Origin: an uncultured Chloroflexia bacterium | GTDB lineage: Bacteria; Chloroflexota; Limnocylindria; Limnocylindrales; CSP1-4 | DNA: 64,000 nt | Assembly (NCBI GenBank): GCA_963809375.1 | Contig: CAWEJO010000008.1 | Location: 69,075-133,074 of the forward strand | Direction: 5' to 3' | Notes under the pieces: model-generated | Seen by the model: only the letters and a program-made list of their open reading frames with translations | The model's database searches: none | What the model was told of the DNA's origin: nothing | Part shown: positions 43,045 to 53,369 of the stretch, in pieces | How positions within the stretch are numbered: the first letter of the stretch is position 1 | Layout: each line of letters begins with the position of its first letter | Position numbers and translations under genes: made by a program

Positions 43045-43317
43045 GCCTCCTGTGGACGGCGAAGGCCATCGTCGAGACGACACGCCGGCCGCGGCTCGAC
43101 GCCGGGGACAGCGCGCCCTCATTTGGCTTCATCGTCGGTCGCGGTCCGCGCCTCCGACAGTGCCGAAAGTTGCGACTTGGTTCCGAAGGAGTACCGGCCA
43201 AAGGTCACCTGATCGGATGACGAGGCAGGCCCGGCACCATCGGGCGAAGCGCGGCGATCCGGGTGACGAATGCGGGCCGTTCGGCAGGTCACGCGGAAGA
43301 CCGACCGGCGGCAATCT

Positions 43318-45793
43318 ATGCGCATGGCTGCATCGGTTGGCGCTCGTTCCGGCGCCGCGGAGCACGGCTCCCGTGTCCCCGCTGCGGACGACGCCAACGG
43401 CCCCAGTGCGCCCGCGCCGGCCGTGGCCAGGGCGTTCACCGTCGAGGGCGTCGTCCAGGGCGTCGGGTTCCGCCCCTTCGTCTGGCGGCTCGCGACCGAG
43501 CTTGGCCTCGCGGGCCGCGTCCGCAACGCGGCAGGGCGCGTCGAGGTGGAGGCTGCCGGGACCGCCGCGGCCCTCGACGCATTCGCCCGGCGCCTGAAGT
43601 CCGACGCGCCGCCCCGCGCCCGGGTGGAGCGGGTGACCGTCGTCCCGCTCGACGCGGCGGCCGCCGCGACGCTGGCAGTGCCGTTCGCGATCGAAGAGAG
43701 CATCGTCGCGGCCTCCGTCGACCGGTTGTTCCCGCCGGACATCGCGACCTGCGACGACTGCCTCGTCGAGCTGTTCGATCCTGCCGATCGGCGCTACCGG
43801 TACCCGTTCACCAACTGCACCAACTGCGGGCCGCGGGCAACGATCATCGACCAGCTGCCTTACGACCGGGCCAGCACGACGATGGCGGCGTTCCCGCTCT
43901 GCCCCGCGTGCGCCCGCGAGTACGCGGATCCCGCCGATCGACGCTTTCACGCCGAACCGGTCGCGTGCCCGGCCTGCGGGCCGCGCCTCGCCTGGCGGCG
44001 GACGGGGAGCGCGGGGCCGGAGGCGTTCGGCGAGGACGCCTTCGCCGCCGCGGTCGCCTCCCTGACGCGCGGGGGCATCGTCGCGGTCAAGGGCCTGGGT
44101 GGCTACCACCTCGCCTGCGACGCGACGGACGAGTTCGCCGTCCAGCGCCTCCGGGAGCGGAAGCACCGCTGGGCGAAGCCGTTCGCGATCATGGTTCGCG
44201 ACGTCGCCGCGGCCGAGCGGCTGTGTCGGCTCGGGTCGGCGGAGCGCGCCCTGCTCACGAGCCCGGCCCGGCCGATCGTCCTCCTCGAGGCGCTCGTCCC
44301 GGGTGAGCCGCAGCTGGGGCCGTCGGTCGCGACCGGGAACCGGCGCCTCGGCGTGTTCCTGCCCTACACGCCGCTCCACCACCTCCTGCTCGACGCGATC
44401 GGACGGCCGATCGTCCTCACGTCGGGCAACCTGACCGACGAGCCGCTGGCCACCGACGACGCCGACGCGCTCGACCGGCTGGCCGCGCTTGCCGACGGCT
44501 TCCTCGCCCACGACCGCGTCATCCGGGCCCGCTATGACGACTCGGTCACGCGCGTCGTCGCCGGGCGCGAGAGCATCGTCCGGCGGGCCCGCGGCCACGC
44601 GCCCGACCCCGTGGCGCTGCCGATCGAGGCGCCCGCGCCGATCCTCGCCGTCGGCGCCGAGCTCAAGCACACGTTCACGCTCGCCCGCGGGGCAAGGGCG
44701 CACGTGGCGCCCCACAACGGCGACCTCGAGGATCTCGCCACGCATCGCGCCTTCACGGACGGCCTGGCCCACCTCTCGCGGCTGCTCGCGCTCGAGCCCG
44801 AGGTCGTCGCCCACGACCTGCACCCCGAGTACCTGTCCACGAAGTACGCCGTCGAGCACTTTCCGCCAGCCAAGCGGATCGCGACGCAGCACCATCACGC
44901 CCACGTCGCATCGTGCGCGGCCGAGCACGGCATCACCGGCCCGTTCATCGGCGTGGCCTACGACGGCCTCGGGATGGGCGACGACGGGACGTTCTGGGGA
45001 GGCGAGATCCTCCTCGCCGACCTTGCCAGCTATCGGCGAGTAGCGCGATTTGGGCGGGCGCCGATGCCGGGTGGCGCGCTCGCCGTCAAGCGACCCTATC
45101 GAATGGCGCTCGGCTATCTCCTCGGTGCGGAGCCCGTCGGAGATCCGGGCCCCGGCGCCGCGGCCGGCATCGAGGGGGCGGACGATCTCGCCGCTGCCTT
45201 CCTGGCGCGTTTCGATCCGCGGGAAGTGGCTACCGTTCGGACGCAGGTGAGGCGCGGCGTGAACGCGCCGACGGCGTCGTCCGCAGGGCGGCTCTTCGAC
45301 GCCGTCGCTTCGCTTCTCGGCCTGCGGGACGTGGCGGAGTACGAGGCCCAGGCCGCGATCGACCTCGAGCTCGCCGCGGACGACCGGATTGCCGCGCCGC
45401 TGCCCTACCGGATCGCCAGGGTCGACGGGCTTCTCGTGTACGACCCTCGCCCGACCCTGCGGGCCGTCCTCGAGGGCACGGCGGCGGGCCGCCTTCCGGC
45501 CGGCCTCGCCGCGGCGTTCCAGGAGACGATCGCCACGCTGACCTCCGAACTGCTGGACGGAGTACGGACGCGGACGGCAGTGCGTACCATCTGCGTCTCG
45601 GGCGGCGTCTTCCAGAACCGCCGCCTGGCGTCCACGCTTGCTCCGGCGGCTCTCGCGCGACGGCTTCGAGGTGTTCATCAACCGGCAGGTTCCAGTCAAC
45701 GACGGGGGAGTCAGCTACGGCCAGGCGGCGATCGCCGCGGCCAGGCTGGCGGGCGGCGCGTCACGCGACCTTCCCGCCACGCCGGACGGGTAG
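43318..45793 (+). CDS. hypF: [NiFe]-hydrogenase maturation carbamoyltransferase (frameshift near 45640)
   Basis: GVVQGVGFRPF, Zn-finger CxxC pairs, KGLGGYHL, HHHAH, SSAGRLFD, NDGGVSYGQ. Confidence 0.96.
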
Positions 45794-45808
45794 AACAGGA
45801 GCGATCCC

Positions 45809-46192
45809 ATGTGCCTCGGCATCCCCGGGCGGGTCATCGAGATCCGTGACGATGCGGGCCTTCCTATGGGGAAGGTCGATTTCGGCGGCGTTCGGAAGGA
45901 CGCCTGCCTCGCCTACATCCCCGAGGTGCAGATCGGCGACTTCGTGATCGTGCACGTGGGCTTCGCAATCAGCCGGGTCGACGAGGACGAGGCCATGAAG
46001 ACGCTCGAGATCCTCAGCACGATGGGCGACCTCGTCAGCGCAGAGCTGGCCACGATGGGGCCCGGCATGGAGCTCCCGGCCGTCGTGTCCGACGACGGGC
46101 AGCCATCGACCGGCGCGTTCGCAGGTAACGCGGGCTCGCCGCCCGATGGCGCTGCGAGCGAACGCTCGGCCGGAGGGGTGCCCCTGGCATGA
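45809..46192 (+). CDS. hypC: hydrogenase maturation chaperone
   Basis: [16 protein letters not shown]. Confidence 0.96.
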
Positions 46193-47406
46193 AGTACCTC
46201 GACGAGTACCGCGACCCGGTGCTCGCGAAGAAGCTCCTCGTCGAGATCCACCGCATCACGACCAGGCCGTGGACCCTCATGGAGGTCTGCGGGGGTCAGA
46301 CCCACACGATCGTCAAGCAGGGGATCGACGAAGCGCTTCCCGACGGCGTCCGGATGATCCACGGCCCGGGCTGCCCTGTCTGCGTGACGCCGCTCGAGCA
46401 GGTCGACAAGGCGCTCGCGATCGCCGCCCGTCCCGACGTCATCTTCGCGAGCTACGGTGACATGCTCCGCGTCCCCGGCTCGTCCACCGACCTGCTGGCG
46501 CTCAAGGCCCGCGGCGCCGATGTCCGGATCGTGTACTCGCCGCTCGACGCGCTCCGGATCGCCCTGGCGAACCCCGATCGGCAGGTGGTCTTCTTCGCGG
46601 TCGGCTTCGAGACGACGGCACCCGCGAACGCGATGGCGGTCTTCGAGGCGGCCCGGCGCGGGATCGACAACTTCAGCGTGCTCGTGTCGCACGTGCTCGT
46701 GCCGCCCGCGATGATCGCCCTGCTCGAGTCGCCGTCGAACCAGGTCCAGGGGTTCCTGGCAGCCGGCCACGTCTGCGCCATCATGGGCTGGACGGAGTAC
46801 GAGCCGATCGCCGCGAAGTACGGCGTCCCGATCGTGGTGACCGGGTTCGAGCCGCTCGACCTGCTCGAGGGGATCCTGATGGCGATCCGCCAGCTCGAGG
46901 AGGGTCGGGCGACGGTCGAGAACCAGTACGTCCGCGCCGTGCGGCGCGAGGGCGTTCCGCTCGCCCAGCGTCAGATCCACGAGGTCTTCGAGACCGGGCC
47001 GCGGAAGTGGCGGGGGATCGGATCGATCCCGGCCTCGGGCTACCGGCTGCGGGACGCGTACGCCCGCTTCGATGCCGAGCAGAGGTTCGAGGTCGGCGAC
47101 ATCGCCACGAACGAGCACCCGGCCTGCATCGCGGGCGCCATCCTGACGGGCGAGAAGACGCCGCTCGACTGCACCGCGTACGGGACGCTCTGCTCCCCGC
47201 AGAAGCCGCTCGGCGCGCCGATGGTGTCGTCCGAGGGCACCTGCGCGGCGTTCTTCGCAGCGGGTCGGGGCCTCGGCGCGAGCCCATTCTCGGCCCCTCT
47301 TCCGCTGCTCCAGGTGGCGCCGGTCCCGGCCGCGGCGGGCGGGCGCGCGAACGCCGCGACGGCCGGCGGGGCCGGGACGGCTTCGTCGGCCGAGGCGGCC
47401 CGATGA
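46189..47406 (+). CDS. hypD: hydrogenase maturation protein
   Basis: [31 protein letters not shown]. Confidence 0.97.
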
Positions 47407-48513
47407 CGGGCGTCGACGCGACGGCCCCGGAGGCAGGTGCCGGACCGCTCACGATCGACCCTGCCGGCGTGGCCTGCCCGGCGCCGTTCCCCGAAGACCA
47501 GCGGGTCATCCTCGGCCACGGCTCGGGCGGCCAGCTGTCGGCGGCCCTGATGCGCGACCTGATCGGACCGTCGCTCGCGTTCGGAGCAGGCGCCGCGGGC
47601 GTCGGCCCGCTCAACGACGCCGCGGTCGTCGAGGTCGCCGGCGCGCGGCTCGCCTTCACCACGGACTCGTTCGTCGTGAGCCCGCTCCGGTTCCCGGGCG
47701 GGGACATCGGCGAGCTCGCGGTCAACGGCACGGTCAACGACCTCGCCATGATGGGTGCACAGCCCGTCGCGATCAGCCTCGCCTACGTCATCGAGGAGGG
47801 GCTCCCGCTCGAGGAGCTCCGCGTCCTGACGATGTCCGCGGCGGCGGCAGCGACCCGCGCCGGGACGCGCATCGTGACCGGCGACACCAAGGTCGTCGGG
47901 CGCGGCGCGGCCGATCGCCTGTTCGTCAACACGGCCGGCATCGGGCTCGTGCCGGACGGCGTCGCGCCATCGGCGGACCGCGCGGCCGTCGGCGACGCGA
48001 TCATCCTCTCGGGGCCGATCGGGCTCCACGGCGTCGCCATCATGTCGGTTCGCGAGGGACTGGAGTTCGAGGTCGAGATCGCGTCCGATACGCAGGCGCT
48101 CAACCGGCTGGTTGCAGCGATGCTGGCGGTCGACCCGGGCATCCACGTCCTGCGCGATCCGACGCGGGGAGGCCTCTCGTCGGCGCTCAACGAGATCGCC
48201 GTGGCGTCGCGCGTCGGCATGGTGCTCGACGAGCCGGCCATCCCGATCCCGGGTCCCGTCCGCGCGGCCTGCGAGTTCCTGGGTCTCGACCCGTTCCACG
48301 TCGCCAACGAAGGGAAGCTGGTGGCGATCGTGCCCGGCCGGATCGGCCGGGGCGGTCGTGGCGGCCATGCGGGCCGACGTCGCGGGCGCCGAGGCAGCCG
48401 TGATCGGTCGGGTCGTGGCCGATCATCCCGGGATGGTCACCCTGCGCACGATCGTGGGATCCGAGCGGATCGTCGACATGCTCGTCGGGGAGCAGCTGCC
48501 CCGGATCTGCTGA
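47403..48513 (+). CDS. hypE: carbamoyl dehydratase (frameshift near 48340)
   Basis: [28 protein letters not shown]-terminal LPRIC. Confidence 0.96.
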
Positions 48514-48680
48514 CGGGGAAGATAGCCTCACAGGCATCCCGGCTGGCGGCGCCCGGCCCACGCGGCCACTCGGCTGGCCCGCGAGCAGTCCGGCTGGCCC
48601 GCGACGGCCCGTCGCGACCCGTGCCGTTCGGCCCCCGGCCACCCTGCCGGCAGATCGCCCGGACGGGCCATTCGGGACTT

Positions 48681-48696
48681 ATGCGCATGTGCGCAT
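48681..48696. promoter_or_regulatory. candidate ArsR-family operator ATGCGCATGTGCGCAT
   Basis: near-perfect 16-bp palindrome overlapping the -35 region of the leaderless arsR promoter (CATGAT 48702-07). Confidence 0.6.
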
Positions 48697-48713
48697 GAGA
48701 CCATGATGCGCCC

Positions 48714-49079
48714 ATGGACCCGATCTGGAGCCTCCAGGCGGAGGTCATGAAGATCCTCGCCAGCCCGCGCCGACTCGAGATCCTCCACCTGCTCGCCGAC
48801 GGACCGAAGGAGGTCGGCCGGCTCGCCGAGGAGATGGAGATCAGCCAGCCGAACGTCTCCCAGCACCTCGCCGTGATGCGAACCGCCGGGATCGTGGAGG
48901 CGGAGCGGGACGGCCGCGAGGTGCGGTACCAGCTGACCGACCCGGACGTGATCATCGCCTGCGGGACGATGCGCCGGGTACTCATGCGCAGGCTCGCCCG
49001 CCTTGGCGAGCTCTCGGAACGGCCCGCCGGCACGAATGCCGCGGCCGCCGCCCCGTCCGTGGCGGCGCGTGCGGGCTGA
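48714..49079 (+). CDS. ArsR/SmtB-family repressor
   Basis: LASPRRLEIL, SQPNVSQHL, GREVRY; a single C-terminal Cys (IIACG). Confidence 0.93.
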   Translation: MDPIWSLQAEVMKILASPRRLEILHLLADGPKEVGRLAEEMEISQPNVSQHLAVMRTAGIVEAERDGREVRYQLTDPDVIIACGTMRRVLMRRLARLGELSERPAGTNAAAAAPSVAARAG

Positions 49080-49088
49080 GGAGGCGGA

Positions 49089-49505
49089 GTGGAAGAGCAA
49101 CCCCTCAACATCGTCCTGTTCTCGGGGACCGAGGACCGCCTGCAGGCCGCCGCGGTGATGACCGCGGGCGCGGCCGCGCTCGGCCGGAAGGTCAACATCT
49201 TCCTGCAGTACTGGGGCCTCGAGGCGTTCCGCAAGGATCGGATCGGGACCAGCCTGGGCCTGGCGCCGGAGGCCGGCGCCGAAGGCGCGCGGCACGTCGC
49301 CGAGGCAGCCGTCGCCGGGCAGGCGCCGTGGCACGTCACGCTGGGCCAGGCCAAGGACCTCGGCGAGGTCGACATCCAGGCCTGCTCGCTCTCGATGGAC
49401 GTCCTGAAGATCGAGGAGTCGGACCTGGATCCCCTCGTCGACGGCGTGGAGGGCGTGACGGCGTTCTACCTCAACGCCGAGGACGGCCACATCCTCTTCA
49501 TCTAG
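49089..49505 (+). CDS. DsrE/DsrF-like sulfur carrier
   Basis: LFSGTEDRL, IFLQYWGL, IQACSLSMD. Confidence 0.85.
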   Translation: MEEQPLNIVLFSGTEDRLQAAAVMTAGAAALGRKVNIFLQYWGLEAFRKDRIGTSLGLAPEAGAEGARHVAEAAVAGQAPWHVTLGQAKDLGEVDIQACSLSMDVLKIEESDLDPLVDGVEGVTAFYLNAEDGHILFI

Positions 49506-49585
49506 TCGAACCGGATGCCCGGGCCGCGAGATCGAGTGCGGCGCCGGCGCGGAGATGCAAGCGGCCGGAGGCGGCCGAAGAAAGG

Positions 49586-49831
49586 ATGGACACGCTGATG
49601 GCGCTCGAAATCGCGCAGCGAGTCGATGCGAAGGGCCTGAGCTGCCCGATGCCGATCGTCAAGACGGCGCAGGCGGTCAAGGGCCTCGCGTCGGGACAGC
49701 TGATGGAGGTCCTGGCGACCGACCCCGGTTCGACCAAGGACTTCGCGGCCTGGTGCAAGACCACCGGCAATGAGCTCGTGGAGGCCACGAACGAGGGCGG
49801 CGTCTTCCGCTTCGTCCTGCGCAAGAAGTAG
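49586..49831 (+). CDS. tusA: TusA/SirA-family sulfur carrier
   Basis: [15 protein letters not shown]. Confidence 0.92.
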
Positions 49832-49840
49832 GAGACCGCC

Positions 49841-50401
49841 ATGACCGCTGTCGCCGACCCCACCTCGGCCGCCGCCGAACCCACCCCCGCCGTCGCCGTG
49901 GAGCCCGAGCCGTCGGGCGAGCCGGTGACCCGGGACATCCTGATCATCGCGTTCTCGGGCGACCTCGAGAAGACCTGGGCGACCATGATCCTCGCCTCGA
50001 CCGGCGCGGCCATGGGCCAGAAGGTGCGCGTCTTCGTCACCTTCTGGGGCCTCCAGACGTTCGTCAAGGACAAGAAGCGGATCACCGGCACCAACTGGAT
50101 GCAGAAGATGCTGGCGTTCATGCAGCGGCCAGGCGTCTCGCACCGCAAGCTCTCCAAGATGAACTTCATGGGCATGGGCCCGTGGATGATGGGGACGCTC
50201 GCCAAGCAGTACAACGTGTCGAGCCCGAAGGACCTGCTCGAGATCGCCATGGACATGGGCGTCGAGTTCATCCCGTGCCAGATGACCATGGACATGTTCG
50301 GCCTCAAGCAGGAGGACATGATCGAAGGCATGGGCGAGCCCGTCGGCGCCGCGACGGTGATGGCCCTGCTCGCGGAAGGCAGCGCCCCGCTCTTCATCTG
50401 A
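49841..50401 (+). CDS. DsrE2-like (DsrE/DsrF/DrsH) sulfurtransferase
   Basis: [28 protein letters not shown]. Confidence 0.9.
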
Positions 50402-50469
50402 TCCCTCCCGATCCGACATCCGTCCGCGGCGCAATCGCGTCGCCCGCACCACCGGAAGGAACCCTTCGC

Positions 50470-50709
50470 ATGGTCACGCCCACGATCAGCACCACGATCG
50501 ACGCCCGCGGCAGCTTCTGCCCGGGCCCGCTGATGGAGCTCATCCGCGCCATCAAGGAGGCCGAGGTCGGCGAGACGATCTCCGTCCTGTCGGCGGACAA
50601 GGGCAGCAAGATCGACATTCCCAAGTGGGTCGGCAAGGCCGGCCACACGCTCGTCGCGGTCGAGGAGCGTGACGGCTACGACGAGATCGTCGTCACCAAG
50701 GTCCGGTAG
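50470..50709 (+). CDS. tusA: second TusA-family sulfur carrier
   Basis: [15 protein letters not shown]. Confidence 0.9.
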
Positions 50710-50716
50710 CCGATCG

Positions 50717-51910
50717 ATGAAGCGCGTTCTCGTCCTGGGCGGCGGGGTCGGCGGCACGCTCACCGCCAACCTCGTCGCTCGCAAGCTGAAGAAGGAGATC
50801 GCCGCGTCGACCGCCAAGGTCACCGTCGTCGACGCGACCGGCCGCCACGCGTACCAGCCTGGCTACATGTACATCGCGATGGGCCAGCAGCGCGCCGACA
50901 AGCTCGAGCGGTCAGAGCGCCGGCTCCTCGACGGGAACGTCGACCTGGTCGTCGACGAGATCGAGCGGATCGACGTCGAGGCGAGCCTGGTTCACCTGAC
51001 GTCCGGCGAGGTCCTCGCCTTCGACCAGCTGGTGATCGCCACCGGCGCCCGGATCCTTCCCGAGTCGATCGCCAACTTCGACACCGAGGCCCACCACTTC
51101 TACACGGCCGAGGCTTCGATGCGCCTGCGCAAAGCGCTCGACGGGTTCGAGGGCGGGAAGCTGGTGATCGGCATCGCGGGCATTCCCTACAAGTGCCCGC
51201 CCGCGCCGCTCGAGGTCGCGTTCCTCGTCGAGGCGGAGCTTCGCGAGCGGGGCCTGCGCGAGAAGACCGACATGACGTTCCTCTCGCCGATCAACCGCGC
51301 GTTCACGATCGAGAGCGTGAGCGAGATGGCGACCCCGATCTTCGAGCAGAAGGGGATCGACCTGCAGCTCCTCGCCGGCGTGGACCAGATCGACGCCGAG
51401 CGCAAGGTCGTGATCACCGACGCGATGGAGGAGTACCCCTACGACCTCCTGATCGTCGTGCCGCCCCACAAGGGCGCCCAGGTCGTGATCGACTCCGGGC
51501 TCGCCCCGAAGTCCGGCTGGGTCCCGACCGACCGGCACACGCTGCTGGTCAAGCACATGATGCCGAAGGGAACGTCCGACGAGGACACCCCCCGCTACCC
51601 GAACATCTACGCGATCGGCGACACGACCGACCTGCCGCTCTCGAAGGCTGGATCCACGGCCCACTTCGAGGCGCCGATCGTCGCCGAGCGGATCGCGGCG
51701 GCCGTCCGCGGCGTCGAGCCCACCGGCAAGCATGCCAACTACACCGGCAAGGTGATGTGCTTCTTCGAGGTCGGCGACGGGAAGGGCACCCTCCTGCAGT
51801 TCGACTACGACCATCCGCCCAAGCCGCCCAAGCCCAACCAGCTCTGGCACCTGGGCAAGGTCCTCTTCAACAGGACCTACTGGCAGACGGTGCCGCGGGG
51901 CCGCATCTAG
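50717..51910 (+). CDS. sqr: sulfide:quinone oxidoreductase-like flavoprotein (type III-like)
   Basis: GGGVGG, YQPGY, YKCPPAPLE, IGD, KVMCFFE. Confidence 0.85.
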   Translation: MKRVLVLGGGVGGTLTANLVARKLKKEIAASTAKVTVVDATGRHAYQPGYMYIAMGQQRADKLERSERRLLDGNVDLVVDEIERIDVEASLVHLTSGEVLAFDQLVIATGARILPESIANFDTEAHHFYTAEASMRLRKALDGFEGGKLVIGIAGIPYKCPPAPLEVAFLVEAELRERGLREKTDMTFLSPINRAFTIESVSEMATPIFEQKGIDLQLLAGVDQIDAERKVVITDAMEEYPYDLLIVVPPHKGAQVVIDSGLAPKSGWVPTDRHTLLVKHMMPKGTSDEDTPRYPNIYAIGDTTDLPLSKAGSTAHFEAPIVAERIAAAVRGVEPTGKHANYTGKVMCFFEVGDGKGTLLQFDYDHPPKPPKPNQLWHLGKVLFNRTYWQTVPRGRI

Positions 51911-52028: not shown

Positions 52029-53369
52029 ATGAGCCACCCTGCCGGCCGGGTCTTTCCCAGGGTCTTCGGACGCCAGCTGCCGATCGCGGCCTGGGCCGAT
52101 GGCGCGACCATCCACGACGCCGACGGGCGGACATACCTCGATGCCGCCGGCGGCGCCGTCGTCGTCAATGTCGGCCACGGCCGACGCGAGATCGCGGCCG
52201 TGATGGGAGACCAGGCGGCGCGCATCGCGTACGCCCACGGCACCGCGTTCACGAGCGAGGCGCTCGAGGCATACGCCGCCGAGCTCGGCGCGGTCCTGCC
52301 ACTCGACGACCCGGCCATCTACCCGGTGTCGGGTGGCTCCGAAGCGGTCGAGACGGCGCTCAAGATGGCGCGCGCCTACCACCTCGCGCGTGGTGAGGGC
52401 AGCCGCCAGGTCGTCATCGCCCGGTGGGGGAGCTACCACGGCAACTCCCTCGGCGCGCTCGACCTGTCTGGCCGCCTGCCGCTGCGCCGGCCGTACGAGA
52501 CGTGGCTCGGCCGCTTCGAGCACGTCTCGGCCGCGTATCCCTATCGCGGCGGCGAGCCCGCCGCACGGGCGCTCGCTGACGCCGGGGAGCTCGCCGCCGA
52601 GCTTGAGCGGGCGATCGAGGCGGCGGGACCTGGCGCCGTCGCGGCCTTCGTGGCGGAGCCGATCGTGGGCGCCACGCTCGCCGCCGCCGTCCCGCCCGAG
52701 GGGTACTGGCCGGCGATCGCCGCCGTGTGCCGGCGCCACGGCGTGCTCCTCGTCGCCGACGAGGTGATGACCGGCTTCGGCAGGACCGGCCGCTGGTTCG
52801 GGGTCGACCACTGGGGGACGCGCCCGGACCTGCTCGTCGCCGCCAAGGGCGCGACGTCCGGGTACTGGCCGTTCGGGTTCGTGGCGGCCGCGGGACCCGT
52901 GTATGAGGCGATCGCCGGCGGCGGGTTCGTGCACGGGTTCACGTTCAGCCACTCGGTCGTCGGGGCGGCCGTCGCCCGTGAGGTCCTGCGGATCCTGCGC
53001 GACGAGGACCTGGTCGCTGCGTCGGCGGCGAAGGGCGCGCAGCTGCGCGCGCTCCTCGACGACCGGCTTGGCGAGCATCCGAACGTCGGCGAGATCCGCG
53101 GCCGCGGCCTGCTCGTCGGGATCGAGCTGGTCGCCGACCGCGAGCGCCGGACGCCGTTCCCCCGCGCAGAGCGGCGCACCGAGGCGACGGTCGCGGCGGC
53201 GCGCGCACGGGGCATCCTGGTCTACTCGGGAACCGGCAACGCGAACGGCGTCGACGGCGACCTGATCGTCCTCGGGCCGCCCTTCGTGGCGACCGAAGCG
53301 GAGCTCGAGGCGATCGCCGACGGCGTGGCGGGCGCGATCGACGCGGCGACGGCGGCGCCCGTCGGCTGA
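52029..53369 (+). CDS. class-III PLP aminotransferase
   Basis: SGGSEAVETALK, SYHG, AEPIVG, DEVMTGFGRTG, AKG. Confidence 0.92.
   Translation: MSHPAGRVFPRVFGRQLPIAAWADGATIHDADGRTYLDAAGGAVVVNVGHGRREIAAVMGDQAARIAYAHGTAFTSEALEAYAAELGAVLPLDDPAIYPVSGGSEAVETALKMARAYHLARGEGSRQVVIARWGSYHGNSLGALDLSGRLPLRRPYETWLGRFEHVSAAYPYRGGEPAARALADAGELAAELERAIEAAGPGAVAAFVAEPIVGATLAAAVPPEGYWPAIAAVCRRHGVLLVADEVMTGFGRTGRWFGVDHWGTRPDLLVAAKGATSGYWPFGFVAAAGPVYEAIAGGGFVHGFTFSHSVVGAAVAREVLRILRDEDLVAASAAKGAQLRALLDDRLGEHPNVGEIRGRGLLVGIELVADRERRTPFPRAERRTEATVAAARARGILVYSGTGNANGVDGDLIVLGPPFVATEAELEAIADGVAGAIDAATAAPVG

Follow-up and report, generated by a model that had tools for sequence, protein, structure and literature searches.

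A six-gene operon of the order arsR-dsrEa-tusAa-dsrEb-tusAb-sqr, with all genes on the plus strand, was identified in a 64,000-nt stretch of soil Chloroflexota DNA (hereafter the window), and it probably serves inducible sulfide oxidation together with the handling of sulfane sulfur by dedicated protein carriers. The preliminary description of six co-oriented genes behind hypE was borne out, as each gene was located on the plus strand (Table 1), with 200 bp between the end of hypE (...PRIC and stop codon, at 48513) and arsR, and the active-site cysteine predicted for each carrier was present (in IQACS, SCPMP, IPCQ and FCPGP, respectively). The arrangement lies far beyond chance; dozens of species-level genomes share it, and all carrier cysteines are invariant.

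Table 1. Genes and predicted DNA sites of the sulfur operon and its neighbours (window coordinates)
Feature	Position	Strand	Description
DosR/OsdR-like box before hypF	43274..43287	+	GGGCCGTTCGGCAG; 36 nt before hypF ATG (43324)
hypF-hypC-hypD-hypE	43324..48513	+	upstream neighbour of arsR; predicted separate transcription unit
Distal DosR/OsdR-like box	48621..48634		reverse complement GGGCCGAACGGCAC; -93..-80 from arsR ATG
Proximal DosR/OsdR-like box	48665..48678	+	GGGCCATTCGGGAC; -49..-36 from arsR ATG
Likely ArsR operator	48681..48696		7-2-7 inverted repeat ATGCGCA-TG-TGCGCAT
-10-like hexamer	48702..48707	+	CATGAT; ends 6 nt before arsR ATG
arsR	48714..49079	+	ArsR/SmtB-family repressor, 121 aa, Rv0081-like
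DsrE-like carrier 'a'	49089..49505	+	Pfam DrsE_2, DsrE2B-like; 138 aa; Cys in IQACS
TusA 'a'	49586..49831	+	~78-81 aa; Pfam TusA; Cys in SCPMP
DsrE-like carrier 'b'	49841..50401	+	DrsE_2; 186 aa; Cys in IPCQ; Met-rich insert
TusA 'b'	50473..50709	+	78 aa; Pfam TusA; Cys in FCPGP
Type III-like sulfide:quinone oxidoreductase (SQR)	50717..51910	+	397 aa; NF049943 match
Class III aminotransferase	52029..53369	+	downstream of sqr; generic matches under all cut-offs

Gene products and their distribution

Both DsrE-like proteins matched the Pfam family DrsE_2 (cut-off 25 bits), with values of 1.6e-15 and 58 bits for 'a' and 1.8e-42 and 145 bits for 'b'. The nearest structure of both is the DsrE2B-type protein 2QS7, to which 'a' aligned at 2.3e-22 and which 'b' matched in addition to 3PNX, the active-site cysteines being aligned in each case. 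The labels DsrE and DsrE2 given previously are corrected accordingly: both proteins are DrsE_2 members resembling DsrE2B, and both score below the 210-bit cut-off of the NCBIfam DsrE2 model NF047629 ('b' 75.9 bits, 'a' 30 bits). The cysteine of 'a' is invariant among its homologues (70/70) and that of 'b' is retained in all 53 full-length homologues. Similarly, TusA 'a' (1.5e-24, 86 bits) and TusA 'b' (3e-22, 78.7 bits) exceeded the Pfam TusA cut-off of 28.6 bits and displayed their respective CP[ML]P and CPGP motifs in 57/57 and 78/78 homologues; both fall under the cut-off of the NCBIfam equivalog model for Escherichia coli TusA. In the window genome and three relatives, DrsE_2 and strong TusA genes are essentially confined to the cluster, and the carriers are therefore regarded as dedicated to it.

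The sqr product matched Pfam Pyr_redox_2 (1.4e-16) and FCSD_central (4.6e-07), and its N-terminus (MKRVLVLGGGVGG) contains the GxGxxG motif of a flavoprotein fold with two dinucleotide-binding domains. Its KCPPAP and VMCFF segments align (1e-33) with KCAGAP and SCPLV of human SQOR, which harbour redox residues Cys201 and Cys379, in agreement with the initial view of an SQR-like flavoprotein possessing both redox cysteines; the corresponding C160 and C348 are invariant among 14 homologues of 39-82% identity. The sole strong NCBIfam match was to NF049943 (323 bits against a cut-off of 525), a model of the selenoprotein subtype of type III SQR, the window protein having Cys, and 36 of 36 diverse homologues likewise matched this model alone. 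An insert of approximately 12 residues is specific to this clade, and the C-terminal WHLGKVLFNRTYWQTV, together with conserved F349 and F362, would be compatible with membrane binding through C-terminal amphipathic helices. Type III is the least-known SQR type (PMC10205796), and the characterised type III enzymes cited in that paper oxidise sulfide with quinones.

Related loci were retrieved with a 14-sequence alignment and neighbourhoods were compared over 80 loci. The identical six-gene order occurs in approximately 30 Limnocylindria genomes, Actinomycetota and Dormibacteria carry the same five structural genes in a changed order, and the DsrE-TusA-SQR core extends to at least ten phyla, archaea included. 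Furthermore, tusAb, whose stop codon in the window lies 7 nt upstream of the sqr start, directly precedes sqr in 77 of the 80 loci, spanning more than ten phyla. The module is accessory, being carried by about half of the genomes of the class (129 of 301). The class III aminotransferase gene 3' of sqr is a lineage-specific neighbour only; it adjoins sqr only in the approximately 12 nearest loci and may be co-transcribed with the operon.

Predicted regulatory sites upstream of arsR and hypF

The arsR product displays the winged-helix ArsR/SmtB fold (HTH_5, 4.6e-17; NF033788, 89.7 bits against a cut-off of 55) and, as described previously, contains a single cysteine, C83, which is conserved among its homologues along with H25, while a second cysteine (position 32) occurs in a subset of them. 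The protein lacks the two cysteines that SqrR/BigR carry in alpha-2 and at the C-terminal end of alpha-5: BigR Cys42 aligns with H25, the position of BigR Cys108 falls approximately 25 residues past C83, and the BigR model scored only 59 bits against its cut-off of 155. The regulator is Rv0081-like rather than a two-cysteine SqrR/BigR-type sensor. Its structural relatives include the Cd/Pb sensor CmtR and, as the best match over nearly the full length (5e-16), Rv0081.

A perfect palindrome, ATGCGCA-NN-TGCGCAT, has one exact match in the 64,000-nt window, which is located at arsR; in 30 related loci it occupies -33/-34 relative to the arsR ATG, and only its central dinucleotide varies between them. 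When up to two mismatches were allowed, 27 of these 30 loci contained one arsR-proximal palindrome, and this conserved element is likely to represent the ArsR operator. The few additional matches at this tolerance include the hypF start of locus L008. In the window, TATGCGCATG at the hypF start was considered as a second ArsR operator and rejected, as its right half-site is missing and its three mismatches correspond to chance level; locus L001, which has TATTCGCATG at this position, also speaks against it. An N-terminal ArsR extension called in relatives (MMRKCACV...) was likewise dismissed as coding sequence, as it runs across the operator and is broken by a TGA in the window sequence.

Two DosR/OsdR-like boxes are positioned further upstream. 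The distal box matches the OsdR consensus AGGGCCGATCGGCCCT (PMC5069765) at 12 of 14 central positions and is present at -93/-94 in eight related loci. At the position of the proximal box (-49/-50), the block G[GT]G[AC]C-N4-GGCAC is kept in approximately 25 loci, ten of which conform to the stringent pattern. Across promoters, 21 of 72 contain an OsdR-like box, the background frequency being one site in 9.4 kb. Within the window, enrichment was seen only with a stricter IUPAC pattern (10 matches, 3.98+/-2.26 expected); a weight matrix derived from the boxes next to arsR showed none (8 matches at >=11 bits, 7.5 expected). The OsdR-like motif is GC-rich. The mycobacterial DosR core GGGACNNNNGTCCC occurs below expectation in the window and is absent from the arsR promoter, the local box being an OsdR-like GGGCC...GGCAC variant. 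The hypF box lies at the same distance from its start codon as the proximal arsR box, and a box occupies the equivalent hypF position in L001 (1316) and L008 (158). The promoter thus carries near-consensus palindromic boxes at fixed positions, as expected of a DosR/DevR/OsdR regulon member; binding by the phosphorylated regulator and induction by hypoxia are predicted, and the sulfur operon appears to belong to the low-oxygen programme of these bacteria. Additionally, a hexamer [CG]AT[GA][AG]T is kept at -12..-7 in relatives, and the operon mRNA is probably leaderless. A generic sigma-70 promoter and terminator scan returned nothing useful at the locus, including no terminator between hypE and arsR.

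The hyp neighbourhood and comparison with known sulfur systems

The location of hypE upstream of arsR on the same strand had led to the proposal of a relay that either shields or feeds the maturation of [NiFe]-hydrogenase by Hyp proteins, or links the oxidation of H2 to the reduction of sulfur or polysulfide. The lack of a predicted terminator between the two genes speaks for this reading. The neighbourhood survey revealed that direct hypE-arsR adjacency is not unique to the window genome and occurs in several relatives, yet it is limited to three genera of one family, and hyp genes lie within 8 kb upstream in just 6 of 80 loci. Across the 301 genomes of the class, hypE was detected in 39, of which 26 also carry the module and 13 do not, and it is absent from approximately 80% of the module-bearing genomes; the module furthermore occurs in many phyla without nearby hyp. 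Even among close relatives the two units separate, with inserts of 1.5 and 6 kb between them in L001 and L002, respectively, and 300-410 kb between their loci in a sister genus (g2), and arsR has its own predicted promoter and operator. We know of no step in HypCDEF chemistry that requires sulfane sulfur, and a monotopic flavoprotein that reduced sulfur with quinol would have to work uphill by approximately 200 mV. A role in Hyp chemistry or in H2-dependent sulfur reduction is largely refuted by this distribution and we consider it highly improbable; the tempting idea that the sulfur carriers are functionally tied to hydrogenase maturation is thereby set aside as unsupported. The hyp and sulfur units do share their upstream box type, and since the DosR/OsdR-like box stands equally far from the start codon in the two operons, their adjacency would be explained by a shared low-oxygen regulon. 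In this assembly, hypF (near 45660) and hypE (near 48320) each contain one frameshift.

As noted initially, no dsr, shdr, rhodanese or dioxygenase gene adjoins the operon; the cluster lacks genes for a persulfide dioxygenase, a rhodanese and a sulfite exporter, and all-against-all clustering of the flanking ORFs identified no recurrent rhodanese, dioxygenase, TauE or YeeE beside the module. A complete Dsr or sHdr pathway elsewhere, which could have accounted for the carriers, was also sought and was not found. DsrA was not detected in any of four genomes (the window genome G000 and G001-G003), and no CCG-domain protein was detected in G000, which is 60% complete. G003 has a single CCG protein that is not Hdr-like, and the Hdr/Etf/hydrogenase-type cluster of G001, at a distance of 500 kb, includes neither TusA nor DsrE. 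In these four genomes the Dsr pathway is absent and there is no consistent sHdr. The original notion of a compact, self-contained sulfide/persulfide module is supported, as is its control by an ArsR without the SqrR/BigR cysteine pair.

The suggestion that such a circuit is possibly undescribed holds only in part, as a similar operon has been reported in Methylacidiphilum fumariolicum SolV (PMC10205796), although that report does not cover the biochemistry of the carriers. There, MFUM_v2_0219-0221 encode a type III SQR with TusA and a DsrE2-like carrier, are upregulated in sulfide-adapted cells or by H2S, and are proposed to act in sulfide detoxification (PMC10205796). Compared by description, that operon encodes a single carrier pair, placed after sqr, whereas the window has two distinct pairs upstream, and an ArsR, an operator and DosR-type boxes are not described for it. 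The Bacillus licheniformis cluster yrkD-yrkEFHIJ-ydfQ-nreBC-sqr-pdo (PMC9918477) similarly combines dsrE and tusA homologues with sqr under dual control, by a sulfane-sulfur-sensing repressor and a sulfide-responsive two-component system of the HisKA_3/NarL type. Its repressor is CsoR-like (CstR/YrkD) rather than an ArsR, it includes a rhodanese, two PDOs, TauE and thioredoxin, none of which the window cluster encodes, and its two-component system lies within the cluster, whereas that of the window is approximately 17 kb away and would act through the predicted boxes. The Sulfolobales also encode small single-cysteine DsrE-family (DsrE3A, DsrE2B) and TusA carriers together, but these feed the sHdr-LbpA complex, whereas the partner enzyme in the window is SQR (PMC11094781).

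With respect to regulation, SqrR, BigR, SoxR and sHdrR (PMC12423496) are ArsR-fold autorepressors that precede sulfur-oxidation genes and bind inverted repeats, as is predicted for the window protein; they possess a cysteine pair, which in the SqrR/BigR type forms an intraprotomer tetrasulfide, whereas the window ArsR has an alpha-2 His and one Cys at the start of alpha-5. The best structural relative, Rv0081 of Mycobacterium tuberculosis (PDB 6JMI), has Glu and Leu at the positions of H25 and C83, and its operon encodes a formate-hydrogenlyase-like complex instead of sulfur carriers. This ArsR-type repressor lacks metal sites, belongs to the DosR regulon and is encoded by the first gene of a hydrogenase-related operon.

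Proposed function and its alternatives

In the proposed mechanism, the type III-like SQR would be a monotopic FAD enzyme with C160 and C348 as its redox pair. From family chemistry we infer that it oxidises H2S, passing the electrons to the quinone pool, and that the sulfane sulfur on its cysteines is transferred to the CPGP-type TusA encoded immediately upstream. Sulfur would then pass along the DsrE2B-like and TusA carriers, in an order deduced in the same manner, so that free polysulfide would not accumulate in the cell; thiosulfate, S0 or cofactor biosynthesis are candidate final sinks. Sulfurtransferases are known to accompany SQR and to limit the build-up of sulfane sulfur (PMC9163753). 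The conserved DNA anatomy suggests that a DosR/OsdR-type response regulator bound to the boxes at -93 and -49 would activate the operon at low oxygen and possibly in response to sulfide as well, and DosS is known to bind H2S (PMC9062744). ArsR would occupy the palindrome (-33..-18) between box and -10 element until a sulfur-derived signal on invariant C83/H25 releases it, both the ligand and the direction of this effect being presumptive, while hypFCDE would be transcribed separately within the same low-oxygen regulon. Counted against this explanation are the SQR score below the NCBIfam cut-off, the lack of a sulfur-sink gene in the cluster, the missing biochemical assignment of the archaeal DsrE2B-type protein (PMC11094781) and the GC-rich box motif with its unenriched weight matrix, as well as the absence of the cysteine pair that all proven persulfide-sensing ArsRs possess, such that the ligand here could be a metal or haem.

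The last point underlies an unlikely alternative that concerns the regulator only, in which ArsR senses metal or haem via H25'/C83 at the dimer interface, or acts as a ligand-independent hub repressor like Rv0081. The structural relatedness to Rv0081 and CmtR and the loss of the SqrR/BigR cysteine positions (H25 in place of the alpha-2 Cys, C83 some 25 residues early) are consistent with it, as is the ability of SqrR and YgaV to bind haem (PMC12344995); however, the controlled genes are all sulfur-handling, C83 is invariant where Rv0081 has no Cys, His-rich alpha-5 metal ligands are lacking, and some homologues have the additional cysteine at position 32. With regard to the enzyme, the flavoprotein might act on TusA- or DsrE-bound sulfur instead of free sulfide, as a carrier-persulfide or thiosulfonate oxidoreductase. 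Its near-obligatory pairing with a dedicated CPGP-type TusA, its score under the type III cut-off and the clade-specific insert would fit such a substrate, and in archaea the sulfur on DsrE3A and TusA is a thiosulfonate rather than a persulfide (PMC11094781). The conserved FAD fold with both SQR redox cysteines, the exclusive match of every homologue to the type III SQR model and the sulfide-oxidising, quinone-dependent activity of those type III enzymes cited in PMC10205796 nevertheless leave this reading little probability.

An assimilatory role, in which sulfide is kept at low oxygen as protein-bound persulfide and delivered through TusA to cofactor or thionucleoside synthesis (e.g. via a MoeZ-type rhodanese-ThiF protein), with neither detoxification nor energy conservation as the purpose of the module, is somewhat less improbable, but still quite unlikely. 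In its favour, TusA acts as a hub that distributes sulfur to Moco and to tRNA thiolation, an oxidising partner (persulfide dioxygenase or sHdr) is missing from the cluster, and a rhodanese-ThiF fusion and a tandem rhodanese are encoded elsewhere in the genome. The accessory nature of the module bears on both sides of the argument: it accords with this role, yet half of the class manages without the module although cofactor synthesis is universal. Moreover, the 80 loci show no linkage to biosynthetic genes, and in M. fumariolicum it is toxic H2S to which the homologue responds, with elemental sulfur as the product (PMC10205796).

The preferred reading, sulfide oxidation with carrier-based handling of the product, may be extended to a broader and tentative proposal, which we hold to be possible though on balance doubtful: that type III SQRs across Bacteria and Archaea neither release polysulfide nor rely on small thiols, their sulfane sulfur entering a dedicated protein relay from CPGP-TusA to DsrE2B-like carriers, to which Limnocylindria have added an ArsR with a His/Cys site and DosR-type wiring. 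The haem kinase of the DosR-type regulon may itself sense sulfide. The oxidation of sulfide by SQR is well understood in cases where the product is removed by glutathione, rhodanese and persulfide dioxygenase; many hosts of type III SQR are presumed to lack glutathione. The near-obligatory, translationally coupled CPGP-TusA and the DsrE2B-like carriers point to a protein-based acceptor route. If correct, the relay would identify the acceptor of SQR sulfur in organisms that lack glutathione and assign a function to the orphan DsrE2B family, for which the literature considered assigns no biochemical role to the archaeal representative (PMC11094781). The Limnocylindria ArsR would then constitute a new kind of sensor, in which a His/Cys site replaces the SqrR/BigR cysteine pair. 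As about half of this abundant, uncultured soil class carries the module, the finding bears on how nominally aerobic bacteria may cope with transient anoxic, sulfidic microsites.

Composition and distribution of the operon

The six co-oriented genes placed by the preliminary description at 48714-51910, beginning 200 bp after the end of hypE (48513), were confirmed with small amendments. Gaps of just 7-9 nt separate three gene pairs (arsR-dsrEa, tusAa-dsrEb and tusAb-sqr). The window has a G+C content of ~73% and lies on contig C8 of a 2.48 Mb genome of 14 contigs with a completeness score of 60%. In this assembly hypF (45630-45700) and hypE (48290-48350) each show one frame change relative to intact homologues, and several other window genes are fragmentary (an isolated AcetylCoA_hyd_C domain, a 123-aa piece of POR and an incomplete ABC ATPase); this and the completeness score suggest that the frame switches are assembly indel errors rather than pseudogenes.

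Genes of the sulfur operon (window positions) and predicted promoter elements (positions relative to the arsR ATG)
Feature	Position	Strand	Remarks
ArsR/SmtB regulator	48714-49079	+	121 aa; single Cys, C83
DrsE_2 protein 'a' (DsrEa)	49089-49505	+	138 aa; IQACS
TusA 'a'	49586-49831	+	~78-81 aa; SCPMP
DrsE_2 protein 'b' (DsrEb)	49841-50401	+	186 aa; IPCQ
TusA 'b'	50473-50709	+	78 aa; FCPGP
SQR-like flavoprotein	50717-51910	+	397 aa; two redox Cys
Distal box GGGCCGAACGGCAC	-93 to -80	reverse	position kept in 8 loci
Proximal box GGGCCATTCGGGAC	-49 to -36		stringent match in 10 loci; looser block kept in ~25
Predicted ArsR operator ATGCGCA-NN-TGCGCAT	-33 to -18		fixed position in 30 loci
-10-like hexamer CATGAT	-12 to -7		kept in relatives

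[quoted passage not shown] Among solved structures human SQOR is closest (1e-33), and the KCPPAP and VMCFF segments of the flavoprotein align with both catalytic cysteines of the human enzyme. Thousands of close homologues occur in soil metagenomes, and the nearest other SQR cluster (at 50%-identity clustering) is just 49% identical. In the SQRs of the Limnocylindria clade, ~12 additional residues (HMMPKGTSDEDTPRYP) are inserted ahead of the conserved GD motif (window 51590-51640, SQR residues ~290-305); this insert is missing in other type III-like homologues. As for the two DsrE carriers, the DsrE2B-type structure 2QS7 is closest to both and their active-site cysteines align; neither reached the NCBIfam DsrE2 cut-off. 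The carrier cysteine was invariant among the homologues of DsrEa (70/70), TusAa (57/57), DsrEb (53/53) and TusAb (78/78). DsrEb additionally contains a methionine-rich segment (residues ~75-115, window 50060-50180) with weaker counterparts in PDB 3PNX and 2QS7, which may form a lid or docking surface.

Scanning of one genome per species and annotation using the window's own proteins yielded 80 loci. The order ArsR-DsrEa-TusAa-DsrEb-TusAb-SQR was found at 30 loci and the same order with ArsR undetectable at nine, in both cases in Limnocylindria-type MAGs; DsrEa-TusAb-SQR-TusAa-DsrEb, including truncated cases, was found at 13 loci of Actinomycetota and Dormibacteria, and DsrEa-TusAb-SQR at 15 (Thermoplasmata, Nitrososphaerales, Archaeoglobus, Meiothermus, Thermomicrobiales, Bacillota, Proteobacteria and others). 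At 77/80 loci tusAb lies immediately 5' of sqr. One locus with an SQR homologue, L069, is that of Meiothermus granaticius NBRC 107808. Within the class sample of 301 Limnocylindria genomes, SQR was present in 129 (77 of the 154 high-quality genomes) and in 39/57 genera. The operon, with its sulfur carriers and predicted sulfide oxidation, is real and widely conserved.

The ArsR regulator and its promoter

The regulator was confirmed to possess a single cysteine, C83, which is invariant among 31 ArsR homologues; H25 is kept in at least 90% of them, and only a subset has a second cysteine, at position 32. Its best solved relatives are Rv0081 (5e-16), CmtR and BigR. Cys42 of BigR aligns with H25, and the position of BigR Cys108 lies ~25 residues past C83, so that the window ArsR lacks the feature by which the SqrR/BigR/SoxR class is defined (PMC12423496). 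Its ligand may be sulfane sulfur bound at C83, a metal or haem.

The operon lies under a conserved predicted ArsR operator and DosR-like boxes; the latter were derived from the arsR promoters and match the OsdR/DevR consensus AGGGCCGATCGGCCCT (PMC5069765). When up to two mismatches were allowed, 27/30 loci had a single, arsR-proximal operator match, and among the few additional matches is one at the start of hypF in L008, a related locus. The position of the -10-like hexamer implies that the arsR mRNA would be leaderless. A box was present in 21/72 promoters, compared with a background frequency of one site per 9.4 kb, and the window contains 10 matches to the box pattern (3.98 ± 2.26 expected), one of them 36 nt 5' of the hypF start codon, at a position equivalent to that in L008 and in another related locus, L001.

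Two further candidates were rejected. The 10-mer TATGCGCATG at the hypF start (43318-43333) also occurs in the ArsR operator; as a second operator site it lacks the right half-site and is not kept in L001, and the likeness is most likely a coincidence of start-codon context. In the called genes of L001 (7991-8030) and L002 (7847-7885), ArsR is extended by 12 residues (MMRKCACV...) over the operator palindrome. Since this frame is interrupted by a TGA in the window, the extension is probably a mis-called start.

Hyp adjacency and partner pathways

The preliminary description had proposed that the circuit protects or supplies Hyp/[NiFe] chemistry, or couples H2 to sulfur reduction. Adjacency to hyp is not unique to this genome: hypE and the module lie within 8.3 kb of each other in 10/10 cases in the window's genus and in one genome in each of two other genera. 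However, hyp genes are upstream at just 6/80 loci (5/53 of those with at least 7 kb of upstream sequence). In the class sample, hypE occurs in 39 genomes of eight genera, 26 with the module and 13 without, while ~100 genomes have the module without hypE. In the sister genus, whose SQRs are mostly 77-82% identical to that of the window, hypE and the module share a contig yet are 300-410 kb apart, and inserts separate hypE from arsR in L001 (1.5 kb) and L002 (6 kb). Sulfane sulfur is not known to be required in HypCDEF chemistry. Taken together, these observations indicate that the adjacency is lineage-specific synteny, and a mechanistic tie between the sulfur operon and Hyp is not supported.

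A complete sHdr or Dsr pathway elsewhere could have accounted for the carriers, and was sought in the window's genome and three near-complete relatives. DsrA was found in none of the four, and DrsE_2 and strong TusA genes were essentially confined to the cluster in all of them. The window's genome (60% complete) had no CCG-domain proteins, one relative had a single, non-Hdr-like copy, and an Hdr/Etf/hydrogenase-type cluster in another relative lies 500 kb away and is without sulfur carriers. Neither pathway therefore accounts for the carriers in these genomes. The Hdr/Etf/hydrogenase-type cluster (locus L087, G001:C1:1064000-1079000) follows a Cache-type two-component system and comprises genes for HdrB/C-like CCG proteins, EtfBA and an HdrA-like flavoprotein, as well as one resembling that of a [NiFe]-hydrogenase small subunit. 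The rhodaneses found were a tandem SseA-type protein and a MoeZ-type Rhd-ThiF fusion, the latter with its rhodanese domain (genome contig C1:114352-114627) N-terminal to a ThiF/MoeB-type adenylyltransferase; this fusion could draw on protein-bound sulfur at a downstream step.

Probable low-oxygen context and related systems

A two-component system resembling DosS/DosR (a GAF-HisKA_3 kinase and a LuxR-type regulator) flanks the module within 8 kb at 17/80 loci (among them L019, L020, L026, L028, L040, L046-L048, L051, L058, L064 and L086), including those of Actinomycetota and Dormibacteria; at L048 the pair directly precedes the module, in the same orientation. Genes for Usp, CBS, hemerythrin and P-type ATPase proteins are likewise recurrent in the flanks. 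Given these neighbours and the boxes at both arsR and hypF, hypFCDE and the sulfur operon appear to be separate units within a single predicted low-oxygen island of DosR type. DosS itself binds H2S (PMC9062744). In regulatory logic the closest parallel is the B. licheniformis cluster, where control is exerted by a sulfane-sulfur repressor plus a sulfide-responsive NarL-type two-component system (PMC9918477). As an operon, the closest case described is that of M. fumariolicum, type III SQR-TusA-DsrE2, which is induced by H2S (PMC10205796). Of greatest interest is that TusA and the DsrE2B-like proteins may serve type III SQR as its physiological sulfur acceptors. Sulfurtransferases are known to limit the build-up of sulfane sulfur in SQR turnover (PMC9163753).
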